Of a DNA stretch of 26,507 nt, positions 1 to 11,977 are shown piece after piece. The notes under the pieces are model-generated. The model had not been told where the DNA came from and searched no databases. It was given only the letters and a program-made list of their open reading frames with translations. The DNA is from Nitrospinaceae bacterium (GTDB lineage: Bacteria > Nitrospinota > Nitrospinia > Nitrospinales > VA-1). Numbering within the stretch: the first letter of the stretch is position 1; each line of letters begins with the position of its first letter. The translations under genes were made by a program, and so were the position numbers. The stretch lies in NCBI GenBank assembly GCA_029937635.1, contig JAPYPM010000004.1, positions 1-26,507 of the forward strand, in the 5' to 3' direction.

Positions 1-1253
1 GATGGCAGGCAATCAATAACAGCGATATGATCGTAATACCGGATCCCACAACAGCAATGATGGACCCTTTCATGAATGTTCCTACTCTAAGCTTGATATG
101 TAATATCTCTGATCCAATCACAAAGGAAAAATATTCTAGGGATCCTCGGTATATTGCTCAAAAAGCGGAGTCTTACCTCAAGTCGACAGGACTTGGGGAT
201 ACAGCATACATTGGACCAGAAGCAGAGTTTTTTATTTTCGATGACGTAAGATATCAAAATGATTCGAACCAGGCTTTCTATGCGGTGGATTCAGAAGAAG
301 GAATATGGAATTCTGGAAATTCTGGAAGAGACGAAGAACCAAATTTAGGATATAAACCTCGACACAAAGAAGGTTATTTCCCAACATCTCCAACTGACAG
401 TTTACAGGACATTCGTAGCGAAATGTTGCTTACAATGGAGGAAGTTGGTATTGAGATGGAATGCCACCACCATGAAGTGGCGACAGCTGGGCAATGTGAA
501 ATTGATATGCGTTATGCTCCTTTAGTAAAATGCGCAGATAACTTAATGTGGTACAAGTATATCGTTAAAAATATAGCTAAGCGTCACGGTAAAACCGCAA
601 CATTTATGCCGAAGCCACTATATGGAGACAACGGAACTGGAATGCATGTGCACCAAAGTATCTGGAAGGGTGGAAAACCTCTTTTTGCTGGGGATGGATA
701 CTCAGGATTTAGTGAAATGGGTTTGCATTATATCGGAGGAATTTTGAAGCATGCGAGGGCAATTTCTGCTTTTACCGGACCAACTACCAACTCATACAAA
801 AGATTAGTTCCTGGTTTTGAGGCACCTGTCAATCTCGCCTATTCAAGTCGAAATCGAAGTGCTGCCGTTAGAATCCCAATGTACTCACAGAGCCCAAAAG
901 CAAAAAGAATGGAGGCCCGTTTTCCTGATCCTTCTGCAAACGGTTATCTAGCCTTTGCAGTTATGCTTATGGCCGGGTTAGATGGAATTGAAAATAAAAT
1001 TGACCCTGGTGAACCAATGGATAAAGATTTATATGCAATGGGAAGGGAAGAGTTGGCTAATATTCCTACGCTTCCAGGTTCATTGGATGAAGCATTGTGT
1101 GCACTAGAGGCAGATCATGATTTCATGCTAAAAGGAGATGTGTTTACTCAGGATTTGATAGATACATGGATTGATTACAAACGTGAAAATGAAGTGGACC
1201 AATTACGATTACGTCCACATCCTTATGAGTTCTATATGTATTATGATGTTTAA
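1..1253 (+). CDS. glnA: Glutamine synthetase type I (5'-truncated by the window edge)
   Basis: Frame is open from the window edge ([15 protein letters not shown]), so the ORF-track Met at 27 is internal. GSI motifs [63 protein letters not shown]. Adenylylation-site region PMDKDLY. C-terminal RPHPYEF. Confidence 0.98.
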
Positions 1254-1274
1254 ACTAATTTTGATGTATTATTC

Positions 1275-1306
1275 AAACCCTCGGCTTTAGCCGAGGGTTT
1301 TTTTTT
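1275..1306 (+). terminator. Rho-independent terminator after glnA
   Basis: Perfect 11-bp inverted repeat aaaccctcggc-ttta-gccgagggttt running into a T9 tract (1298-1306), 21 nt after the glnA stop. Confidence 0.93.
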
Positions 1307-1367
1307 GATTAGATTTACGCACTAATTATAAAATTATTAAGTAAAAAATAAATAATATTAGAAAAAG

Positions 1368-4300
1368 ATGACGGATAATTTACGACTATATAACTCAATA
1401 CATAATTGTGACCCTTGGGAGGAAAGCTTTGAAAAATCTCTGCGAAAATACAATTTTATAGAACCAAAAAAGGCTTGGAAAAATATTCTTACATTGTCTA
1501 GCCAATCAAACTTTGAAGGTTTATTTCCTGGATTTTTTAAATCGTTTATAAAAACAATAGGGTCATCATACCACCCAGATTTAGCACTAAACAATTTTGA
1601 AAGATTTACTGAGACAATAGAAGATAAAAACTACCTGTATACGATTCTATATAATTCGCAAGAAACCCTTAAATCGCTAATAGTTTTATTTTCAGGAAGT
1701 CAGATTTTAACTGATACGTTGCTAAGCAATCCATCATTTTTTGAATGGATCAATAATTCAGAAATAATAAACAATTCAAGGTCAAAAGATGAATTCATGA
1801 GGGCATACTATGAATTCTCAGGGGAACAGTATTTGGATATAAACACTCCTGAACTGCTACGAAAATTTAAAAAAAGAGAATACATACGAATCGGACTTAG
1901 GGACTTATTGGATAAAACAGATTTTGAAGAAACGGGAAGAGACCTGTCATGTTTAGCAGATTTAAGTTTGCAAGTTGCATATGAATATGCAGAGAAAAAA
2001 ATAAAAGAAAAATATGGTGTTCCTTATTATAAGGAAAATAAAGAACAATTAAAGGAAATAGAATTTGCAATACTGGGAATGGGGAAACTGGGTGGTTTAG
2101 AATTAAATTACAGTTCGGATATAGATTTAATTTATATATACACTTCAAGTAACGGAGAAACACAAGAAACAGAAAATTATCCAGATACCATAAATATAAG
2201 TAGTCATGAATACTTTACAAAGTTAGCTGAATTGTTAACAAAAACAATAGATGAAATAACATCAGATGGAAACGTATTTCGAGTGGATCTTAATTTGCGG
2301 CCAGAGGGCGCTACTGGGCCAATAGTTAATTCACTTGAAAGTTGTGAAATATATTATCAATCATGGGGTCGTTTATGGGAGAGACAGGCTCTTATGAAAG
2401 CAAGAGTTTCGGCCGGAAGTGAGTCTTTGGGGAAATTATTTTTTTCGATGATGGAACCATTTGTTTATAGAAAAAACATAGATTTTTCTGCAGTGAAAGA
2501 AATAACAAGTATGAAAGAAAAAATAAACCAGAATATACAAAGAAAAAATATAAATAGAAGAAATATAAAACTTGGTAAAGGAGGAATCCGAGAAGTTGAA
2601 TTTACAGTTCAAACTTTTCAATTGATATTTGGAGGTAGAGAAAAAATAGTAAGAGGAGGTAATACAATAAAAGCTTTAAAATCCATTTATAAATTAAATT
2701 TTATTGAAGAAATTGAATATAAAAAACTAAAAAAAGCATATATTTTTTTAAGAAATTTAGAAAACATGGTGCAAATTTCATTTGGACTTCAAACTCATGA
2801 TTTGCCAGAAGATAGAATGTTGCTAGCAGTACTAGCTCTAAAAATGAATATAAATGGAAATTCAATTGAAGAGTTAACTGAAAAATTAAATAATGAATTT
2901 TCAGACCATACTCAATCCGTTAATAATATTTTTTCTGAATTATTTAAAAAAGAACAAGATAGAAAGCTTGGAAATAAAATAAAAAAGATTCCTGAAATAA
3001 GAACATTGAATGAAAAAGTGATAGAAAGTGTATTTTTTGAAAATAATAAAAATGCGCTACGTTTTTTGAAAATTCTGAGAGATGGACCAAAGTTCTCACG
3101 TATAAACGAAAAGAGTGTCGATGATTTTTATAGGATTCTTCCAAAAATTCTGGACGAATGCCGAGAAGTACCGATGGCAAATACAGCATTAGAAAATTTG
3201 GTAAGGTTTATTGAATCAAGTAAAGCAAGAGAATCTTTTTTAGGATTATTTTCTGAAAATAAAAATTTTCTAAAATTACTTCTTAAAATATTTGGAAGCA
3301 GTAATTTGATGTCAGACATATTAATTAAACAACCCGGCTTAATAGATATAATTGAAGATACGGAGTCTATTTATCGTTTTAAAAATAAAATAAATCTAAA
3401 TAAGGAAATAAAAAAAAGTATTAATATAAGTAATAATTTTGAGGAAAAAAAAAATAACTTACGAAGATTTAAACAGGGTGAGGAATTAAGGATAGGTATT
3501 CGCTATATAATTGGTGAAGCAGATATAGAAGGCACATTAAAAGATCTTTCTAGCTTAGCTGAAATATATATAGAAAATGCGTATCAACTAGCATTAATAA
3601 AATTAAGTGCTCAGTATGCTAATGAAAGAATAATTCCAAGTAATTTTGCTATTATTGGAATGGGGAAAATAGGTGGGAACGAGATAAACTTTAAATCCGA
3701 TTTAGATCTAATTTTTGTTTACGAGACTAACAAAGATGATTCATTATTTTCAGACAATGTAGTTCTATTTTATACAAAAATTTATCAGCTATTGCATGAG
3801 TTGACATCCCAAGTAACCTCTTCTGGATATGCGTATAAAATAGATTCTGACCTACGTCCAGAAGGTAAGAGTGGACTAATGGTAAATTCAATTAAGAGTT
3901 ATGAAGAGTACTATAGAGTAAGGGCAAGAACATGGGAACAACAGTCCATGGTAAGGGCAAGATTTATAGCGGGGAATCAACAAACGGGAAAAAATTTTAT
4001 AAATATGGTAAATAGTTTTACCTATCGTCCCAAGTTAGAATACGAGTCGATTATAGAAATTTCAAGATCAAGAGAAAAAATTGAACAAGATTTAGCGGAG
4101 GAGGCCACTAAGGGAAAAAATATAAAATTGGGTTATGGGGGATTAGCAGATATTGAGTTCTCGGTTCAAATTTTACAGATGATGCATGGAGGTAAAAATA
4201 GTCGTTTAAGAGAAACTAACACACTTTGTGCTCTTGCCCAGTTAGATGCTTTGGGCATTATTGATCATGAAGATTCAAAAAATATCAAAAAAAACTATCT

Positions 4301-4529
4301 TTTCTTGAGAAACCTAGAGTGCTCATTAAGGATTCAAAACGTTTCACTAATGAGTCACTTGCCAAAAGAGCAAGAAAAACTTTTAATACTGGCAAGATTT
4401 TTGAAATATTCTGGGGAAAATCCAATTGTTATCGTGAGAAAATTTATGAATGAATATGATCAAAGTACAAAAGAAATTAGATTTTTTTACAGAAAAACTA
4501 TAGATAATTTGCTGCGAAATGCACTTTAA
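1368..4529 (+). CDS. glnE: Bifunctional glutamine synthetase adenylyltransferase/adenylyl-removing enzyme
   Basis: 1053 aa with two homologous nucleotidyltransferase halves: GMGKLGGLELNYSSDIDLIY...RVDLNLRPEG...WERQALMKAR and GMGKIGGNEINFKSDLDLIF...KIDSDLRPEG...WEQQSMVRAR. NIKLGxGGxxxxEF occurs in both halves. Adjacent to glnA. Confidence 0.95.
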   Translation: MTDNLRLYNSIHNCDPWEESFEKSLRKYNFIEPKKAWKNILTLSSQSNFEGLFPGFFKSFIKTIGSSYHPDLALNNFERFTETIEDKNYLYTILYNSQETLKSLIVLFSGSQILTDTLLSNPSFFEWINNSEIINNSRSKDEFMRAYYEFSGEQYLDINTPELLRKFKKREYIRIGLRDLLDKTDFEETGRDLSCLADLSLQVAYEYAEKKIKEKYGVPYYKENKEQLKEIEFAILGMGKLGGLELNYSSDIDLIYIYTSSNGETQETENYPDTINISSHEYFTKLAELLTKTIDEITSDGNVFRVDLNLRPEGATGPIVNSLESCEIYYQSWGRLWERQALMKARVSAGSESLGKLFFSMMEPFVYRKNIDFSAVKEITSMKEKINQNIQRKNINRRNIKLGKGGIREVEFTVQTFQLIFGGREKIVRGGNTIKALKSIYKLNFIEEIEYKKLKKAYIFLRNLENMVQISFGLQTHDLPEDRMLLAVLALKMNINGNSIEELTEKLNNEFSDHTQSVNNIFSELFKKEQDRKLGNKIKKIPEIRTLNEKVIESVFFENNKNALRFLKILRDGPKFSRINEKSVDDFYRILPKILDECREVPMANTALENLVRFIESSKARESFLGLFSENKNFLKLLLKIFGSSNLMSDILIKQPGLIDIIEDTESIYRFKNKINLNKEIKKSINISNNFEEKKNNLRRFKQGEELRIGIRYIIGEADIEGTLKDLSSLAEIYIENAYQLALIKLSAQYANERIIPSNFAIIGMGKIGGNEINFKSDLDLIFVYETNKDDSLFSDNVVLFYTKIYQLLHELTSQVTSSGYAYKIDSDLRPEGKSGLMVNSIKSYEEYYRVRARTWEQQSMVRARFIAGNQQTGKNFINMVNSFTYRPKLEYESIIEISRSREKIEQDLAEEATKGKNIKLGYGGLADIEFSVQILQMMHGGKNSRLRETNTLCALAQLDALGIIDHEDSKNIKKNYLFLRNLECSLRIQNVSLMSHLPKEQEKLLILARFLKYSGENPIVIVRKFMNEYDQSTKEIRFFYRKTIDNLLRNAL

Positions 4530-4540
4530 AATAGAAAAAA

Positions 4541-6124
4541 CTATTTATTTGACGAGGTTTTGGAGAACGAATTAAGCTTATATTCAACGCTATCTATTAA
4601 AGCTTGCCAACTGGCTTCTATAATATTTTCTGATACGCCAACAGTTCCCCATTTCGAATCATGGTCGCCAGATTCAATTAATACTCGGGTTTTAGCCTGT
4701 GTGCCTTTTTTCTGATCTAGGATTCTCACTTTGTAATCAAAAAGTGAAACATCTTTCATTTCAGGATAAAATTTTCCTAATGCTTTTTTAATAGCCTTAT
4801 CCAATGCGTTAACTGGACCTATGCCTTCAGCAGCAGTAACCTCCTGTACTCCATTAACTCGAATTTTTACTGTGGCTTCTGATATAGTTATTTCATCTTC
4901 CCCTCTTTGTTCTACAATTACACGAAAACCAATAAAATCGAAAAAATGTTTCTTTTCACCAAGGGCATCGCGCATTAATAGTTCAAAGGAAGCTTCTGCT
5001 CCTTCGTATTGATATCCGAGTTGTTCGAGTGATTTAAGGTTATCAAGGATATTTTTTATTTTTGGATCTTGATCATCAAGAGATATTCCATATTCTTGAG
5101 CCTTGGAAAGAATATTACTTTTACCGGACAAGTCCGAAATTAAAATTCGTTGAACATTGCCGACGGACCCTGGAGAAATATGTTCGTATGTTGCGCTATT
5201 TTTTTTAATAGCGCTTACATGTATTCCTCCCTTATGAGCAAATGCACTTTTACCAACATACGGTTGATGATTCCAGTGTGCCTGGTTAGCAAGTTCATAA
5301 ACAAATGATGATAAATCTGTCAACGATTGCATTTGTTCATCAGAAATACAGTTCAAACCCAGTTTAAGTTTAAGATTTGGGATTATGGAAATTAGATTGG
5401 CATTTCCGCATCGTTCACCAAACCCATTTATAGTTCCTTGAACTTGCTCTGCACCATGCTGAACTGCCGTAAGGGCATTCGCAACTGCGAGTTCAGAATC
5501 GTTATGTGTGTGAATTCCAATTTTTGTGGCAATAGAACTTTTAACCAATGAAAATATTTTTCCTACCTCGGAAGGCAAGGACCCTCCGTTGGTATCGCAT
5601 AGTATAATCCAATCGGCACCAGCAGACTCAGCTTCCTTAAGTACTTTCATAGCGTATTCAGGGTTAGTCTTAAATCCATCAAAAAAATGCTCGGCATCAA
5701 ATATTACTTCTGAGCAGTTTTCTTTGAGGTAGCTAACGCTATCTTTGACCATGTTTAGATTTTCATTCAAAGTTGTGGAGAGTGCTTCATTAACATGCAT
5801 ATCCCAACTTTTCCCAAAAATGGTAATAACATCCGTATTTGATGCAATCAAATGTTTGATATTAGGATCATTTTTCACCTTGTGGGTAGGATGTCGCGTA
5901 CTTCCAAAGGCAGTAATTTTTGCTTGTTTAAAATTAATATTTTGGATTCGGTTAAAAAATTCCATATCTTTTGGATTAGATCCAGGCCAACCTCCCTCAA
6001 TATATTTGATTCCAAGCTCATCGAGTTTGTGAGAAATACGAATCTTGTCTTCAACGGTAAAGGAAACATCCTCTGATTGCGAACCGTCTCTTAATGTGGT
6101 GTCATAAATACTAATTGTTTTCAT
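4541..6124 (-). CDS. cimA: (R)-citramalate synthase, DRE-TIM metallolyase with C-terminal regulatory domain
   Basis: [88 protein letters not shown] match the bacterial (Geobacter-type) CimA subfamily rather than LeuA. Confidence 0.88.
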
Positions 6125-6171: not shown

Positions 6172-6663
6172 TTAACTATTTACAAAAGCTTTATCCATAT
6201 CAAATACTTTGTGAAGAACGCGGACTGCGAGTTCACCATATTTTTCTTCAATAATACAAGATACTCTAATTTCAGATGTGCTTATCATTATAATATTTAT
6301 ATTTTCTTTAGATAGAGCACTAAACATTTTTGCGGCAACTCCTGGATGACTTCGCATACCTGCACCTACAATAGAAATTTTGCATATATTTATATCAGTA
6401 GTAATATCACGAGCTTTAATAAGTTTACCTAGGTCTTGAACGATCTTGTTAGCTTTATTTATCTCTTCTTTTGCAACAGTAAACGAAATATCCGTTTGGC
6501 TTTCATCGCTGACATTCTGAATAATCATATCAACAGAAAGATTTTCATCTGCGAGTCCAGTGAAAAATTTACTGGCAATTCCTGGTTGATCAGGAACACC
6601 TTTAATTGTTATTTTAGCTTGATTTTTATCATTCATTATTCCAGATACTACCGGCTGTTCCAT
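6172..6663 (-). CDS. Aspartate kinase beta (regulatory) subunit from an in-frame internal start at Met249 (163 aa, MEQPVVSGI...)
   Basis: Minus strand reads TAAGGAGG-attcgagt-ATG at lysC codon 249, at the kinase/ACT boundary. Internal initiation of a beta subunit is established for alpha2beta2 aspartate kinases (Corynebacterium glutamicum, Bacillus subtilis AKII). Confidence 0.78.
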
Positions 6664-7407
6664 ACTCGAATCCTCCTTACAGATCAAGGTACCTTTAGAG
6701 TCTTCAACTAAAGATGATTTTACAATAAGTGGCATATCATATTTTTTACAGAATTCCACACAGCGAAACTGCAGTACCTTTGCTCCCAAGCTAGACATTT
6801 CTAGCATTTCGTCATAGGAAACACGCTCCATTTTGTGCGCATTAGGGACAACATTCGGGTCAGCAGTATAAACTCCGTCTACGTCAGTATAAATTTCACA
6901 CCTCTCTGCTTTTAAAGCTACCGCTATAGCGGCAGCAGAAGTATCTGAGCCCCCTCTTCCTAGAGTGGTAACATCACCATGCTCATTTATACCTTGAAAG
7001 CCTGCAACGACTACTACCTGTCCGTCCTCTAAAGACTTTATAGCACGGTTTGTATCGACTTCTTTGATACGTGCATTTGTATGAGAGTTATCGGTGAGTA
7101 ATCCAATTTGTCTACCTGTCATAGAAATAGCTGGGCACCCGATACTATCAAGAGCCATACTTAATAGGGCACATGAAACACGTTCTCCAGATGATAATAA
7201 AAGATCCATATCCCTATCTTTTCCAATGGTACTAATTTGATTAGCCATGGCTAATAGTTTGTCAGTTTCACCGGCCATTGCGGAAACGACGACCACAATA
7301 TCAATTTTTTCTTTTCGCAGATGGGCAATACGTTCTGCAATTTTTTTTATTCGCTCAATATTACCAACGGAAGTACCGCCATATTTTTGTACCACTAATC
7401 GATTCAT
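6172..7407 (-). CDS. lysC: Aspartate kinase (alpha subunit, two C-terminal ACT domains)
   Basis: [64 protein letters not shown] repeats VPDQPGIA and [18 protein letters not shown]. 411 aa. Confidence 0.97.
6672..6679 (-). promoter_or_regulatory. Intragenic Shine-Dalgarno sequence (TAAGGAGG) for the aspartate kinase beta subunit
   Basis: Plus strand cctcctta at 6672-6679 is TAAGGAGG on the minus strand, 8 nt upstream of the in-frame ATG at 6663. Confidence 0.8.
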
Positions 7408-7411
7408 ATTT

Positions 7412-8608
7412 TTAATTTAGGTCAAAAAACATGCTCATCAAATCGGATCCACACTTAAAGTGATTGTTCCCTACATTAAGAAGATTCTCATCAAAATTAT
7501 TAACTAGGTTAGTATCATTTTTTCCGCTCATCACAAATGGGACCCGGTCTTTGCCATATTTAACATCAACAGCAGAATTCATGTGATTAACAACAACCAT
7601 CATTTTGACTTCTTTATTTGAGGAAGTTTCTTTTAATAGTGGGCCAATTACTTTTGAGTCAATATCTTCAATGGTGATGATTTTGTCATCAATATTTCCT
7701 TTTAATGAAATATCTTCAATTCCTGCTACATTAAGGTAAACGATTTCCTGACTCTCTAGCTCATGAATAGCAGCTTTAACTTTATTTCCGAAATTAGTTT
7801 CAGCAAATCCGATAGCCCCTTCAACCTTAACCACCTTCATTTCGGCAGATTTAGCCATTCCTTGAAAAAGTAATGATGCGGAAATCAGTGAAGAGGATTT
7901 TCCATATTTTTTTGCAAATGAAGGAAGATTTCCATTTTTACCATTTCCCCATAACCAGATGCTATTAGCCGAGTCTAGGCTTTCTAGTTTACGTTTTTTA
8001 TTTACCGGATGATTATGTAATATTATTTGGGCTTGATTAATAATATAAATTAAATCTTTAAATTCAGCATCCACAGGCATAAATTTGCGAATACCTTCAC
8101 CGATTAACTCATTAGGTGGTGTCAAACGTTTTGTAAACGGTTTGCTATTCATAACCATTATATTGTGAGGGCCTACGCCAGGATAAAAAGTAACCCCAAA
8201 ATCTGATATTTGAGATTGAAGTGCGTTTAAGTAATTTATAGACTCTTCGCTGGACAAGTGATCTGCCGTATAATCTTTCATTACCATGTCGTTATGACTT
8301 GCTTGCAGAGTTACAAAGTTACAACATAGAGGAATTTCTCCATCTTTGAGGTTTAGCCCTATTGCCAGTGCGTCAAAATATGCTGGACCAATATCATGTT
8401 TTTCGGGGTCGTAACCTAAAAGGGAAAGGTAGGATATCTCATTCCCTGCTTTACAATTTTCGGGGATGGTTTGTACCGAACCTGAACAGCCCTCATGAAC
8501 CATACGATCCAGATTAGGTGTATCCGCAAGCTGTAAGGGAGTCTTATTTTCTTTTTCTGCAATGGGCCTATCAGTCAGGCCGTTGGCAATTACAACCAAA
8601 TATTTCAT
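7412..8608 (-). CDS. ApgM/cofactor-independent phosphoglycerate mutase (proposed homoserine kinase)-family protein with degenerate active site
   Basis: Family scaffold retained: KTPLQLADTPNLD, LSLLGYDP, HPVNKKR, ANSIWLWG, ETNFGNK, DRVPF. Catalytic motifs altered: ANG for xDG, GNE for GSD, EDISL for DExGH, NH for DH. 398 aa, uninterrupted. Confidence 0.85.
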   Translation of the reverse strand: MKYLVVIANGLTDRPIAEKENKTPLQLADTPNLDRMVHEGCSGSVQTIPENCKAGNEISYLSLLGYDPEKHDIGPAYFDALAIGLNLKDGEIPLCCNFVTLQASHNDMVMKDYTADHLSSEESINYLNALQSQISDFGVTFYPGVGPHNIMVMNSKPFTKRLTPPNELIGEGIRKFMPVDAEFKDLIYIINQAQIILHNHPVNKKRKLESLDSANSIWLWGNGKNGNLPSFAKKYGKSSSLISASLLFQGMAKSAEMKVVKVEGAIGFAETNFGNKVKAAIHELESQEIVYLNVAGIEDISLKGNIDDKIITIEDIDSKVIGPLLKETSSNKEVKMMVVVNHMNSAVDVKYGKDRVPFVMSGKNDTNLVNNFDENLLNVGNNHFKCGSDLMSMFFDLN

Positions 8609-8937
8609 AACTTAAACCAAATTTATATGGGTGGATGGTAGCTTGAGGAGTCTTGAAAATTATATCGTATCTTTCTAAAAAATTCACACATAAAAAATAA
8701 TGAAAAGAAATTATTAAAACAATACTATATGGGAGAGGTGTTGAAAATAGTTTATTGAATAGATAACTTAGAGAAGTCTTTTATGTAGTACCTAAACCTT
8801 GTTAATAAAATCCCATTAACTGGTTCTAATTCATTGGAATATAAGGGTAAATTAAATAGACCAAGATATATGGCTATGATACTTTATAAGGAATTGATAC
8901 TTAATGTCTCTAAATATGAGCGTTAAAAAATTTTCGC

Positions 8938-9825
8938 ATGCATAAGATAAATGAAATTTGCAAGGACGGCAAATCTTTACCCTTAAGTACAGGAGGGAAT
9001 TTAAGAGTCGTTTTTTTGGGAGTTGGATCCGCTTTTACAAAGCGTAACCGGCAATCCAATTTTCTAATTATACAGAAAAATCATCACGTTTTAGTAGATT
9101 GTGGCACTCTTGGGTCCTTAGCTCTTGATGATGTTGGATTAAGTGTAAGTGAAGTACAATGTTATCTCCCAACCCACAGTCATGCCGATCATATCGGAGG
9201 TTTTGAGGAAGTTGCTTTAGTTAATCGCTACCTTTCAAACTCCTCTAATAAACCGAAAATGGTTATCCCGAAAGACTATCAACATTTACTTTGGACTAAG
9301 AGTCTTGCTGGGGGATTAGAGTTTTGTGAGGTTTCGCAAGGTAAACCACTCGAGTTAACAGATTTTTTTGATATTCTTCGTCCAAAAGAAACGGAATTAC
9401 TTGGAAGAAAAGTTTGGTCTTATAAGCATGGACCGATGGAATTGGTTCTCATGCGGTCACGCCATATCCCAGATTCTGCGATTAATATTGATGAGGCGCA
9501 ATGGTGTACTGGAATTTTGATAAATAGGAGAGTATGGATTTCTGGAGATACTATGTTTGATAAAGACTATCCTAATCAGTTTTCGAGATTATCAGAAGTG
9601 ATGTTCCACGATTGTCAAATATTTCAAGGCGGAGTTCATGCGTCCTATCATGAGCTGATGACACTACCTAATGAGATACGTTCTAAAATATATCTATATC
9701 ACTACAATGATAATTGGGACAAGCCAAAAACTTGGGTTAAAGATTCAGATAATTTTACAGGTGATCCTATCAAAGACGGATTTCTGGGTTGGGCCAATCA
9801 ACAAGTAGCGTACGACTTTGAATAG
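8938..9825 (+). CDS. MBL-fold metallo-hydrolase, probable (cyclic) nucleotide phosphodiesterase, Apyc1-like
   Basis: FLGVGSAF, LVDCG, THSHADHIGG (HxHxDH), RHIP, SGDT, FHDCQ, VHASYHEL, YHYND. All expected metal ligands are present. Confidence 0.85.
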   Translation: MHKINEICKDGKSLPLSTGGNLRVVFLGVGSAFTKRNRQSNFLIIQKNHHVLVDCGTLGSLALDDVGLSVSEVQCYLPTHSHADHIGGFEEVALVNRYLSNSSNKPKMVIPKDYQHLLWTKSLAGGLEFCEVSQGKPLELTDFFDILRPKETELLGRKVWSYKHGPMELVLMRSRHIPDSAINIDEAQWCTGILINRRVWISGDTMFDKDYPNQFSRLSEVMFHDCQIFQGGVHASYHELMTLPNEIRSKIYLYHYNDNWDKPKTWVKDSDNFTGDPIKDGFLGWANQQVAYDFE

Positions 9826-9928: not shown

Positions 9929-11977
9929 GTGTCCCCTAAATTTTTGTCACCTATCCCAAAATCAATCTTATTAAGTTTTATTGCAGTTATTATCCTAGGT
10001 ACAGTCATTAGACTGGTGGCTATTTCTGTTCCCTTATATGGAGATGAACTAGCAACAATATCGATTTGGGCAAGCATGCCTCTTCTAGATATTCCCACGC
10101 ATTATGAATATCCAAACAATCATATTTTTCACACTCTCGTCGTCGCTACAATATTTAAGATATTTGGGTTAGACCCATTTTTAATACGTACTCCAGTTCT
10201 AATTTGTGGGATTGGGAGTATAGCGTTAGCGTTTTTTACCACTCATCGAATTACGCGAAACTTTCATGCTGGGCTAGCAGTTTCATTACTAATTGCAATT
10301 AATGGTGGTCATATTTTTTATTCGACAAATGCAAGGGGATATATGTTGATTCTCCTTATTGGGCAGTATATTTTTCACCGTTTGATCGTCTGGATAGATG
10401 AATCTAAAGATTCTTTAAGAGGCTCTAAGGAATTTTTTAATTTAAAAGAACTTTCTGTATTAGCAGGGCTTATGATGATTGGCACTTGGACACTACCTAC
10501 ATTTGTATTTTTTGAGGGATCATTGGGTTTATTTTTTCTTATATCCATTGTTCTATCAAAGCCTAGTCGATGGTTAGATCTTTCAAGTCCATATTTTAAA
10601 AACCTTATAGTGCTAATGATTTGCTTATTAGGTTTGTATGTACAGTATTTTATTTTAATTTCACCAGAAATGTTTAAGCTTGGTTTGTCTAATGCGGCCC
10701 AGTCAGAATTGAGATCTTTTCCTATATCCGTTTTAATTAGTTGGATTCAACCAATTAAATCTGGTGAAATATTTACTATTATATTAGTAGTAATTGGATT
10801 CTTTACCTTGCTTCATACCAATAGAGCAACATTTATATTAGTTGTTTGTTTATTAGTGTTTCCTCCCGTAGTTTCGTATCTAGCCAGTCTTTCAGGTTTG
10901 ATTGAAATAACTCCACACTCAAGAGTATTTTTTTATCTACAACCAATATTTATATTGTGTTCAGTTATTGGTGCCTTAGGGATCTTTAATAAAATGCGAA
11001 ATAAATTAGAAGAATCAGCAGGTAAAATAGTTATAGGTTCGATTTTGATCCTAGTCACATTTATGTCAGGCAAAGAATTACTTCAGGTAACTTGGCCAGG
11101 CAGGTTCTCCTATCAACGACTTGACATTGTTGCGAAATTTGTAAAAGATTTAGGAACTAATGATTTAATTGTATTATCTCGACGTCCACATATCGAATAT
11201 TATTTGTATGGTGGAAAGGAAACAACAAAGCGCGTTAATAAAATTATAAACGAAGGAAAGTTGGGGGATATTTATTTTGTAGAGTATGGCGAAGAAGCCG
11301 AATCAGATACATTAAAGATTAATGAGGAAGGTATAGAGTATTTGCACTTAAATGATTACCTTCAAGTTACAAAAACAAAGGGAAAGTCAGAAAGTATTAT
11401 AATACCTATAAAATTATTTATATCGGAACAACGTATTGGGAACTTTACATTTCGTAAAGTAAATCCAGAGTTTATATTTAATAACTATGTTTTAAGATCA
11501 CCAGCAGATTTAAAGAGATGGCATAATAGGCTTAATTCTGCACCGGTAAAATTAGAACCTCCTTCTATGCATCCGGGAGGATTGCCTGCATTAAAGGTTT
11601 TAGAATCAAGTATTTTAATAGCCAAGAAAGAAGATCAGTTAAATGACACCTTTTTTTCAATTAATATTAATTTGATATCTTCCGAACGAAATTTAGGGAA
11701 AAAAGTTTCTTATCTTCATGCGGTTGAAGAGGGCGGGAAGTATGTTTATAAGAATGCATGGTTATTGAATGAGTGGATATTGGATCATCCTTATGGCCCA
11801 CATATTCTAAACTTAGATTGGCAGACAAAAATATTTATCACGGAAGGAAGACAACCTGTGGAAATTATTAGAACACAAAAATTAGAACAAGGAGAATCTG
11901 GTCGCCTGCGTGGTATTCAGAGTTACAGATTAGTTATGAAGAAAAACAAACTAAAGTCTGATAGAGATAAATTATGA
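9929..11977 (+). CDS. GT-C fold integral membrane glycosyltransferase (ArnT/PMT-like) with soluble C-terminal domain
   Basis: GTG start. First TM helix is followed by the loop LYGDE (conserved DE pair), then IRTPVLICG and FYSTNARGY. About 10 or more hydrophobic segments up to about aa 385, then a hydrophilic tail of about 300 aa. ATGA overlap with hldD. Confidence 0.72.
   Translation: MSPKFLSPIPKSILLSFIAVIILGTVIRLVAISVPLYGDELATISIWASMPLLDIPTHYEYPNNHIFHTLVVATIFKIFGLDPFLIRTPVLICGIGSIALAFFTTHRITRNFHAGLAVSLLIAINGGHIFYSTNARGYMLILLIGQYIFHRLIVWIDESKDSLRGSKEFFNLKELSVLAGLMMIGTWTLPTFVFFEGSLGLFFLISIVLSKPSRWLDLSSPYFKNLIVLMICLLGLYVQYFILISPEMFKLGLSNAAQSELRSFPISVLISWIQPIKSGEIFTIILVVIGFFTLLHTNRATFILVVCLLVFPPVVSYLASLSGLIEITPHSRVFFYLQPIFILCSVIGALGIFNKMRNKLEESAGKIVIGSILILVTFMSGKELLQVTWPGRFSYQRLDIVAKFVKDLGTNDLIVLSRRPHIEYYLYGGKETTKRVNKIINEGKLGDIYFVEYGEEAESDTLKINEEGIEYLHLNDYLQVTKTKGKSESIIIPIKLFISEQRIGNFTFRKVNPEFIFNNYVLRSPADLKRWHNRLNSAPVKLEPPSMHPGGLPALKVLESSILIAKKEDQLNDTFFSININLISSERNLGKKVSYLHAVEEGGKYVYKNAWLLNEWILDHPYGPHILNLDWQTKIFITEGRQPVEIIRTQKLEQGESGRLRGIQSYRLVMKKNKLKSDRDKL

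Follow-up and report, generated by a model that had tools for sequence, protein, structure and literature searches.

The HomK proteins (TIGR02535, also ThrB2) received that name in the GapMind 2026 preprint, in which BT2402 of Bacteroides thetaiotaomicron and DET_RS08350 of Dehalococcoides mccartyi rescue an E. coli thrB deletion (bioRxiv 10.1101/2024.10.14.618325). According to the same source, the catalytic serine of BT2402 is S56, its metal ligands are Asp and His residues, a specificity Glu (E299 of BT2402) is found where true phosphoglycerate mutases (PGMs) have Lys, and phosphoserine is the suggested phosphate donor. The two-domain fold is also that of ApgM, the cofactor-independent phosphoglycerate mutase of archaeal type (2ZKT from Pyrococcus horikoshii; 3KD8/3IDD from Thermoplasma). 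The window analyzed here, by which we mean the whole stretch of 26,507 nucleotides from a Nitrospinaceae bacterium (contig JAPYPM010000004.1, assembly GCA_029937635.1), carries a gene of this family, here called homK*, whose catalytic center has been dismantled. Our analysis indicates that homK* is probably a pseudoenzyme that arose from HomK once the enzyme ThrH had taken its place by non-orthologous displacement, and that is retained for a binding function. Pseudoenzymes, bacterial and eukaryotic, are catalytically dead homologs that are kept as regulators or scaffolds. Like them, homK* is homologous to active enzymes, lacks their essential residues and is under purifying selection rather than in decay; it departs from the general case in that a whole order shares the loss and one particular enzyme can be named as its replacement. 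A full-text literature search combining 'pseudoenzyme' with 'cofactor-independent phosphoglycerate mutase' returned no paper.

The preliminary description of this locus had taken homK* for an intact family member in which about six of seven core catalytic and metal residues are replaced. The count is exactly six; of D9, S56, D298, H302, D341, H342 and H351 (window numbering), H342 alone is left. The gene and the codons concerned are these:

7412 to 8608, minus strand: homK*, a catalytically degenerate HomK/ApgM-family gene of 398 amino acids plus stop, recognized from the open reading frame translation, TIGR00306, 2ZKT as the closest solved sequence relative, and an AlphaFold2 (AF2) model
8582 to 8584, minus strand: codon 9, AAC, Asn, in place of the family's metal-ligand Asp (codon read directly; D9 occurs in 126 of ∼145 representatives)
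8438 to 8443, minus strand: codons 56–57, AAT GAG, Asn-Glu, in place of the family's phospho-acceptor Ser and the Asp after it (codons and alignments)
8318 to 8326, minus strand: codons 95–97, Cys-Cys-Asn, replacing the substrate-binding R-C-N (codons and constraint maps)
7703 to 7717, minus strand: codons 298–302, E-D-I-S-L, replacing the D-E-x-G/S-H metal-binding motif (codons and alignments)
7556 to 7588, minus strand: codons 341–351, in which N341-H342 replaces D-H and Y351 replaces the last metal His (codons and alignments)
8009 to 8098, minus strand: codons 171–200 of the middle domain (LIGEGIR ... NQAQIILHNH), with many positions invariant in the degenerate clade of the order (the dead clade) and variable in live HomK

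Every residue and codon that had been named is present (N9 AAC, N56 AAT, E57, P75, C95-C96-N97, H148-N149, N166-E167, E298-D-I-S-L302, N341-H342 and Y351), and the motifs TPNLD, GYDP, HPVN and ANSIWLWG are all found in the translation. The 398-residue frame is also intact as described: it has no internal stop, ends in TAA and is followed by four nucleotides (AAAT) and then the ATG of lysC. Catalytic positions were mapped in three ways, by HMMER against the solved ApgM 2ZKT, by MAFFT against ∼145 family representatives, and by alignment with the HomK proteins of sister orders. The mapping agrees in all three, and none places the Asp, Ser or His ligands elsewhere. Against a family consensus of D9, S56-D57, R75, R95-x-N97, H149, H166-D167, H200, R206, H293, E295, D298-E299, H302, D341-H342 and H351, the window protein reads N9, N56-E57, P75, C95-C-N97, N149, N166-E167, H200, R206, N293, A295, E298-D299, L302, N341-H342 and Y351. 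Position 295, which the Lys/Glu pattern suggests is the counterpart of BT2402 E299, is Ala in the window protein, Glu in 121 of the ∼145 representatives and Lys in 2ZKT. Judged by these residues, the homK* protein very probably no longer performs phosphotransfer of the alkaline phosphatase type.

Family membership and fold are nonetheless secure. The window protein passes the ApgM subfamily model TIGR00306 (372.4 bits; cut-off 320) and fails both the HomK equivalog model TIGR02535 (336 bits; cut-off 446.3) and the PGM equivalog model PRK04200 (343 bits; cut-off 426); PF10143 and PF01676 score 115 and 75.8 bits. The AF2 model has a predicted local distance difference test score (pLDDT) of 94.1 and a predicted TM score of 0.93, and its best fold match in the PDB is 2ZKT (Foldseek E 5e-32, TM 0.76–0.83). 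A structure model had been proposed as a check on the residue mapping, and the model obtained predicts an intact two-domain alkaline-phosphatase-like fold with its inserted transferase domain. The protein shares the fold with ApgM and differs from it in having no nucleophile or metal site (N9, N56, E298, L302, N341 and Y351 stand where the phospho-acceptor Ser and the two-metal site define the subfamily), in its genomic context, and in sequence (∼25% identity). Its nearest relatives are HomK proteins (30%–38% identity), with which it shares the two-domain fold and length. Of the residues by which the preprint recognizes HomK, S56, the metal ligands D9, D298, H302, D341 and H351, and the presumed specificity Glu are missing. 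The genomic link to threonine and aspartate pathway genes and the HomK descent are there, as the homK-lysC(-cimA) arrangement is also that of loci whose HomK keeps all seven core residues. The window's genome contains no second ApgM/HomK copy, and a search for gpmI found none.

Public annotation would make the protein a cofactor-independent phosphoglycerate mutase, in keeping with its TIGR00306 score above cut-off and with homologs that their sources name 'phosphoglycerate mutase'. We give this assignment almost no chance. The protein lacks the catalytic Ser and metal ligands, its nearest relatives are of the HomK type with Glu rather than Lys at 295, the context is lysC-cimA and not glycolysis, and the genome offers His-phosphatase-family candidates for a cofactor-dependent PGM.

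Loss of the catalytic center is a property of the whole order. The window's order comprises families f1–f4 (Nitrospina or Nitrospinaceae, and Nitrospinales, by the sources' names), and f5–f9 are the sister orders of its class; 38 orthologs were extracted from the former and 10 from the latter, and the phylum sample was 120 genomes. All 38 proteins of the order are degenerate, keeping 0–2 of the seven core residues, and all 10 from the sister orders are canonical HomK-type proteins with seven of seven. The expectation that orthologs would share the substitutions was borne out: R95C, H149N, D167E, D298E, H302L, D341N (occasionally S, G or P) and H351Y are fixed across f1–f4. Live HomK has R95 without exception (100%), and Cys occupies this position in 92% of the dead clade. 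Other former active-site positions (9, 56, 75, 79, 166, 295 and 299) vary freely inside the dead clade, with N, S, A, G, C or D at position 9 and N, S, D, A, G, P or E at position 56. Loss of H293 is younger, being confined to the window's genus and one neighboring genus. AT-bias was considered as a cause of the Asn and Tyr replacements and rejected, because the same replacements occur order-wide.

The gene itself is not prone to loss. A homK* or homK homolog was found in 111 of the 120 genomes and in 57 of the 57 high-quality ones, so the frequent absence from sister genomes that simple decay would bring was not seen. Marine metagenomes are rich in homologs that carry the name 'Nitrospina sp.' or 'Nitrospinaceae bacterium', almost all of them 398 residues long and 76%–97% identical. 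Complete homK* orthologs measure ∼391–402 residues, and none has a frameshift or a stop.

Gene order connects the dead clade to live HomK. In the window, homK* is followed on the same strand by two genes:

6172 to 7407, minus strand: lysC, aspartate kinase with two ACT domains (NF005155, 606 bits; Pfam AA_kinase and ACT)
4541 to 6124, minus strand: cimA, citramalate synthase, the third gene of the operon (TIGR00977, 821 bits)

homK* adjoins lysC in 38 of 38 loci from f1–f4, and cimA comes next wherever the locus extends far enough. An intact homK lies directly upstream of lysC in four of the 10 sister-order loci (L044, L045, L047 and L053), with cimA next in one of them. Live homK-lysC-cimA operons also occur in metagenome-assembled genomes (MAGs) of Omnitrophota and Planctomycetia, and homK-lysC occurs in MAGs of Pirellulales. 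Because intact homK has the same lysC(-cimA) arrangement elsewhere, homK* can be said to occupy the ancestral HomK slot, a position in the operon that it shares with live HomK of the sister orders, Omnitrophota and Planctomycetota. In the maximum-likelihood family tree, the long stem of the monophyletic dead clade does not join the sister-order HomKs, and orthology to HomK therefore rests on synteny.

Selection was measured on genome pairs from the window's genus and a neighboring genus. dN/dS by the Nei-Gojobori method (NG86) was 0.05–0.22 for homK* and 0.04–0.17 for lysC in the same pairs. The gene is hence under purifying selection comparable to that on lysC, and values near 1, which the preliminary description had named as a sign of decay, were not observed. 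Protein distance relative to LysC was 1.83 in the dead clade (152 pairs) and 1.00 in live sister-order HomK (5 pairs), from which it follows that constraint on homK* is relaxed about two-fold and not abolished. Such partial relaxation is as expected after loss of catalysis. Could homK* be a decaying relic, kept merely for translational coupling to lysC? The gap of 4 nt between stop and start, the lack of an obvious Shine-Dalgarno sequence before lysC in the junction sequence and the ∼1.8 times faster evolution relative to LysC would suit a relic. We consider it very improbable, since low dN/dS extends across the whole length, a length of ∼391–402 residues is held with no frameshift or stop in complete orthologs, the fold is predicted at a pLDDT of 94, and new positions have come under constraint, with 80 positions at least 95% conserved at a mean identity of 53%. 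Translational coupling alone would not preserve an amino acid sequence.

The location of this constraint was examined by comparing the dead clade (mean identity 0.53) with a depth-matched clade of live Planctomycetota HomK (0.59). Positions conserved at 95% or more number 80 in the former and 109 in the latter. Constraint has been lost at D9, E14, P77, E79, T100, H117, D208, E211, D270, E295, A296, P297, E299, P343 and E392. A second set is conserved in both clades with the residue switched (R95C, H149N, V245S, D298E, H302L, H351Y and a few others). Eighteen positions have come under new constraint, being invariant in the dead clade and variable in the live one; 12 of these belong to the middle domain (H105, K111, L162, G170, E171, I173, R174, N191, Q194, I195, I196 and N199), and the codons of H105 and K111 lie at 8276–8296. 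As read from these alignments, the old phosphoryl-transfer site appears to have been abandoned and partly refilled by fixed non-metal side chains, and a new conserved feature appears on the former substrate-holding (middle) domain.

These gains raise the question of whether homK* has become a different enzyme, in which the old center is dead and some other aspartate-family reaction uses a catalytic or substrate site built from the new polar residues of the middle domain. Many of the 18 gained positions are polar or charged; H105, K111, E171, R174, N191, Q194 and N199, together with the retained H200, N203 and R206, are candidate residues for such a site, and strong selection and a conserved operon context would fit an enzyme. 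No known chemistry is tied to the middle domain alone, and the invariant residues fit a protein-protein or ligand-binding surface equally well. We regard neofunctionalization of this kind as a real, if rather unlikely, alternative.

If HomK is dead in this order, homoserine has to be phosphorylated by other means. The retention of hom and thrC, which form one operon in the order (aminotransferase, hom, thrC, an FGE-sulfatase-like gene and trxB), implies that O-phosphohomoserine is needed. ThrB (TIGR00191) exceeded its cut-off in none of the 120 genomes. The window's genome is an 85%-complete MAG, and absences were for this reason also checked in closed relatives. Several candidates were rejected: canonical ThrB in the window's genome, where the weak GHMP matches are IspE and an HddA-like sugar kinase; the Pseudomonas-type ThrB-alt (TIGR00938), which was found in 0 of 5 genomes (the window's and four closed ones); the Desulfovibrio-type homoserine kinase related to shikimate kinase, as each of the five genomes checked has a single SKI homolog; and an unknown kinase hidden in the hom-thrC operon, which contains no kinase gene.

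ThrH of Pseudomonas aeruginosa is described, in the parts of PMC5764234 and bioRxiv 10.1101/2024.10.14.618325 that cite Singh et al. 2004, as a bifunctional phosphoserine phosphatase and phosphoserine:homoserine phosphotransferase. It would perform the reaction that HomK is thought to perform and is the presumed functional replacement of HomK rather than a homolog, having an unrelated HAD fold and 205 residues and being encoded elsewhere in the genome. We searched for it with TIGR02137 (cut-off 223.4 bits) and NF010109 (cut-off 133) in genome groups that were defined taxonomically, independently of the state of homK*. ThrH was detected in 81 of 101 genomes of the order (f1, 55 of 69; f2, 4 of 5; f3, 4 of 6; f4, 18 of 21), including one truncated match below the cut-off; nearly all matches score ∼300–330 bits with TIGR02137. 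All four closed genomes first tested have it at ∼300 bits or more, as do nine of nine single-contig genomes of the order, whereas it was found in 0 of 18 genomes of f5–f9 and in 0 of 14 control genomes. The ThrH of the window's genome (G000:C307:8364-8945) scores 305.7 bits with TIGR02137 and 308.9 bits with NF010109, and thrH lies directly downstream of murJ both there (locus L087, 4832–5449, minus strand) and in a closed relative (G073). ThrH and catalytic HomK are thus exactly complementary, live HomK occurring without ThrH and dead HomK with it. Because the genomes are kin, we count this pattern as one event and not 100.

A further possibility is that homK* is still a homoserine phosphotransferase that works through a remodeled site, for example by direct phosphate transfer with no phospho-enzyme intermediate, in which the aspartyl phosphate product of LysC might serve as donor. 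The HomK slot of the operon is occupied, the genomes have no ThrB (nor, in the five checked, ThrB-alt or a shikimate-kinase-like enzyme) while hom and thrC are kept, and several replaced positions are themselves conserved (C95, N149, E167, E298, N341 and Y351). We judge it improbable all the same. The nucleophile position 56, metal position 9, R75, H166 and specificity position 295 vary freely, and an active site would not tolerate such variation. Moreover, both metal sites are lost, and with ThrH in every closed genome the threonine pathway has no gap left for a remodeled HomK to fill.

Two observations on threonine synthase genes were made in passing. The order also keeps a further thrC-like gene; in the window's genome (G000:C214, locus L043, 378–3690) it is flanked by cysK and the gene of a MoeB/MoeZ-like adenylyltransferase, a set that resembles thiocarboxylate-carrier routes to cysteine or homocysteine via phosphorylated serine or homoserine. 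In G000:C20 (locus L069) and in G073 (locus L070), a protein of 240–250 residues resembling FGE-sulfatase and the EgtB C terminus abuts or overlaps thrC and is followed by trxB, an odd companion for a threonine synthase.

Displacement of HomK by ThrH, with homK* kept as a binding protein, probably proceeded as follows. The ancestor had HomK, an ApgM-like homoserine phosphotransferase supplying O-phosphohomoserine in bacteria without ThrB, in a homK-lysC-cimA operon. At the base of the order, the HAD-family ThrH took over homoserine phosphorylation. The phospho-acceptor serine, the two metal sites and the majority of the substrate-binding arginines and histidines then disappeared from HomK, while the two-domain fold was retained under strong purifying selection and the middle domain came to hold new invariant residues. 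The likeliest binding function is one in which the product binds a partner or ligand and so modulates aspartate kinase, with which it is co-translated, or else the aspartate-family pathway. We infer that ThrH performs homoserine phosphorylation in vivo in this order, and homK* is most economically seen as a protein that binds a ligand or partner and influences the aspartate-family pathway. Among specific partners LysC comes first, a choice that we put forward tentatively and with more doubt than conviction. The more specific suggestion made earlier, a metabolite-sensing or scaffold subunit of aspartate kinase or CimA, is conjecture, and sensing at the old active site is argued against by the variation at positions 9, 56, 75, 79, 166, 295 and 299 and by the location of the new invariants elsewhere. 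In its general form, the earlier proposal of an intact family member with a dismantled catalytic center, kept for a non-ancestral role, has held up: the substitutions are shared, purifying selection acts on the gene, it is present in 57 of 57 high-quality genomes, and ThrH occurs where the residues are lost.

Several points weigh against this interpretation. The inactivity of homK* is read from its residues alone. The adjacency of homK* and lysC was inherited from a live ancestor and is accordingly not independent evidence for a LysC-linked role, and of the six further degenerate homologs checked, three lie away from lysC. The correlation between ThrH and dead HomK is effectively one evolutionary event (n = 1 within the phylum). 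ThrH was undetected in 20 of the 101 genomes of the order; most of the 20 are incomplete MAGs, although four have a completeness of 90% or more. Since ThrH has phosphoserine phosphatase activity as well, it might serve serine rather than threonine synthesis. Finally, the family tree does not put the dead clade beside the sister-order HomKs, a misplacement that we attribute to the long branch and treat as long-branch uncertainty.

Nitrospina-type bacteria are the main marine nitrite oxidisers, and their amino acid metabolism is, to our knowledge, known solely from genomes. The gene is now annotated 'phosphoglycerate mutase', and its context would suggest 'homoserine kinase HomK'; if our interpretation is correct, neither label is right for this order, in which ThrH is the candidate enzyme. 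The locus offers an unusually clean natural experiment in the birth of a pseudoenzyme: live ancestor, operon and displacing enzyme can each be named, the catalytic loss dates back to the level of the order and has stayed stable, and new positions have come under constraint. It also opens a directly testable question: why does a dead enzyme persist after non-orthologous displacement?

A few other degenerate sequences were found among the ∼145 family representatives. P0153 and its 75%-identical relative P0271 each keep two of the seven residues, and P0271 differs from P0153 at the dead positions. P0153 is encoded in a hom, homK*, lysC operon (loci L082–L084) of a planctomycetote, likely one of the Phycisphaerae, and the sources assign P0271 and other close homologs to Planctomycetes, Phycisphaerae or Sedimentisphaerales. 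The remaining 117 relatives of P0153 that were retrieved keep six or seven of the seven residues, and 114 keep all seven. The P0153 lineage was not found in the genome collection that was searched for co-occurrence with ThrH, the closest matches there being live HomKs. P0221 (loci L085–L086) keeps none of the seven residues and is encoded directly upstream of lysC. Three further degenerate homologs lie in unrelated genomic contexts. A rule that degenerate homologs adjoin lysC was rejected on this count, as it holds in three of the six lineages checked. Since other lineages are degenerate too, catalytic loss is recurrent in the family, and the Nitrospinales case is the old, order-wide instance of it.

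The Nitrospinales case points to the possibility that the recently recognized HomK proteins have a hidden regulatory link to aspartate kinase. In its full form, the proposal would be that HomK proteins have a second, non-catalytic role with aspartate kinase, as a LysC subunit or as a scaffold of an aspartate-pathway metabolon; that this role predates the loss of catalysis and is exposed where ThrH or another kinase takes over; that the Nitrospinales protein has become an obligate regulatory subunit through its new middle-domain surface; and that the same outcome was reached independently in Phycisphaerae and in the P0221 lineage. Taken as one joint claim, this is speculative and, we stress, unlikely to be right in all its parts.

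A Rosetta-stone fusion of HomK with aspartate kinase was sought and rejected; HomK-containing proteins with C-terminal extensions exist (970–1120 residues), but the C-terminal parts have no Pfam domain or, in one shorter protein, are a signal peptidase, and none is an aspartate kinase. In P0125, P0127, P0144, P0145, P0150, P0151, P0154 and P0177, an intact HomK carries a C-terminal extension of 570–720 residues without a Pfam domain, and in P0170 (622 residues) HomK is fused to a signal peptidase S26 domain.

The remaining features of the locus concern expression and neighboring genes. Upstream of homK* lies a presumed promoter region:

8609 to 8937, strand not applicable: AT-rich intergenic region of 329 bp between homK* and a divergent MBL-fold gene, presumed to hold the operon promoter

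A riboswitch or other leader 5′ of the operon was considered and rejected, as no Rfam family was found anywhere in the window. Contigs from seawater metatranscriptomes (four runs), 95%–99% identical to the window, span most of homK*; two of them (7076–7495 and 7391–7564) bridge the junction with lysC, and contig depth drops upstream of ∼8700. These contigs come from RNA libraries in which DNA carry-over is possible, and they are supportive only of homK* expression.

Beyond cimA, the operon adjoins an ordinary nitrogen-regulation pair, glnA (type I glutamine synthetase) followed by glnE (adenylyltransferase), at 3–4529 on the plus strand; glnE flanks cimA also in distant members of the order. 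The divergent MBL-fold gene (8938–9825, plus strand) scores 100 bits with the Anti-Pycsar Apyc1 model PF23023 (Pfam cut-off 50). As a conserved chromosomal neighbor of homK* throughout the order, it is probably a housekeeping hydrolase of the cyclic-nucleotide or RNase Z-like type and not a phage gene. It is followed by an open reading frame of 682 residues (9929–11977, plus strand) without a Pfam or NCBIfam match, whose homologs, 32%–60% identical, lie close to this operon in related genomes (loci L009, L016 and L055).

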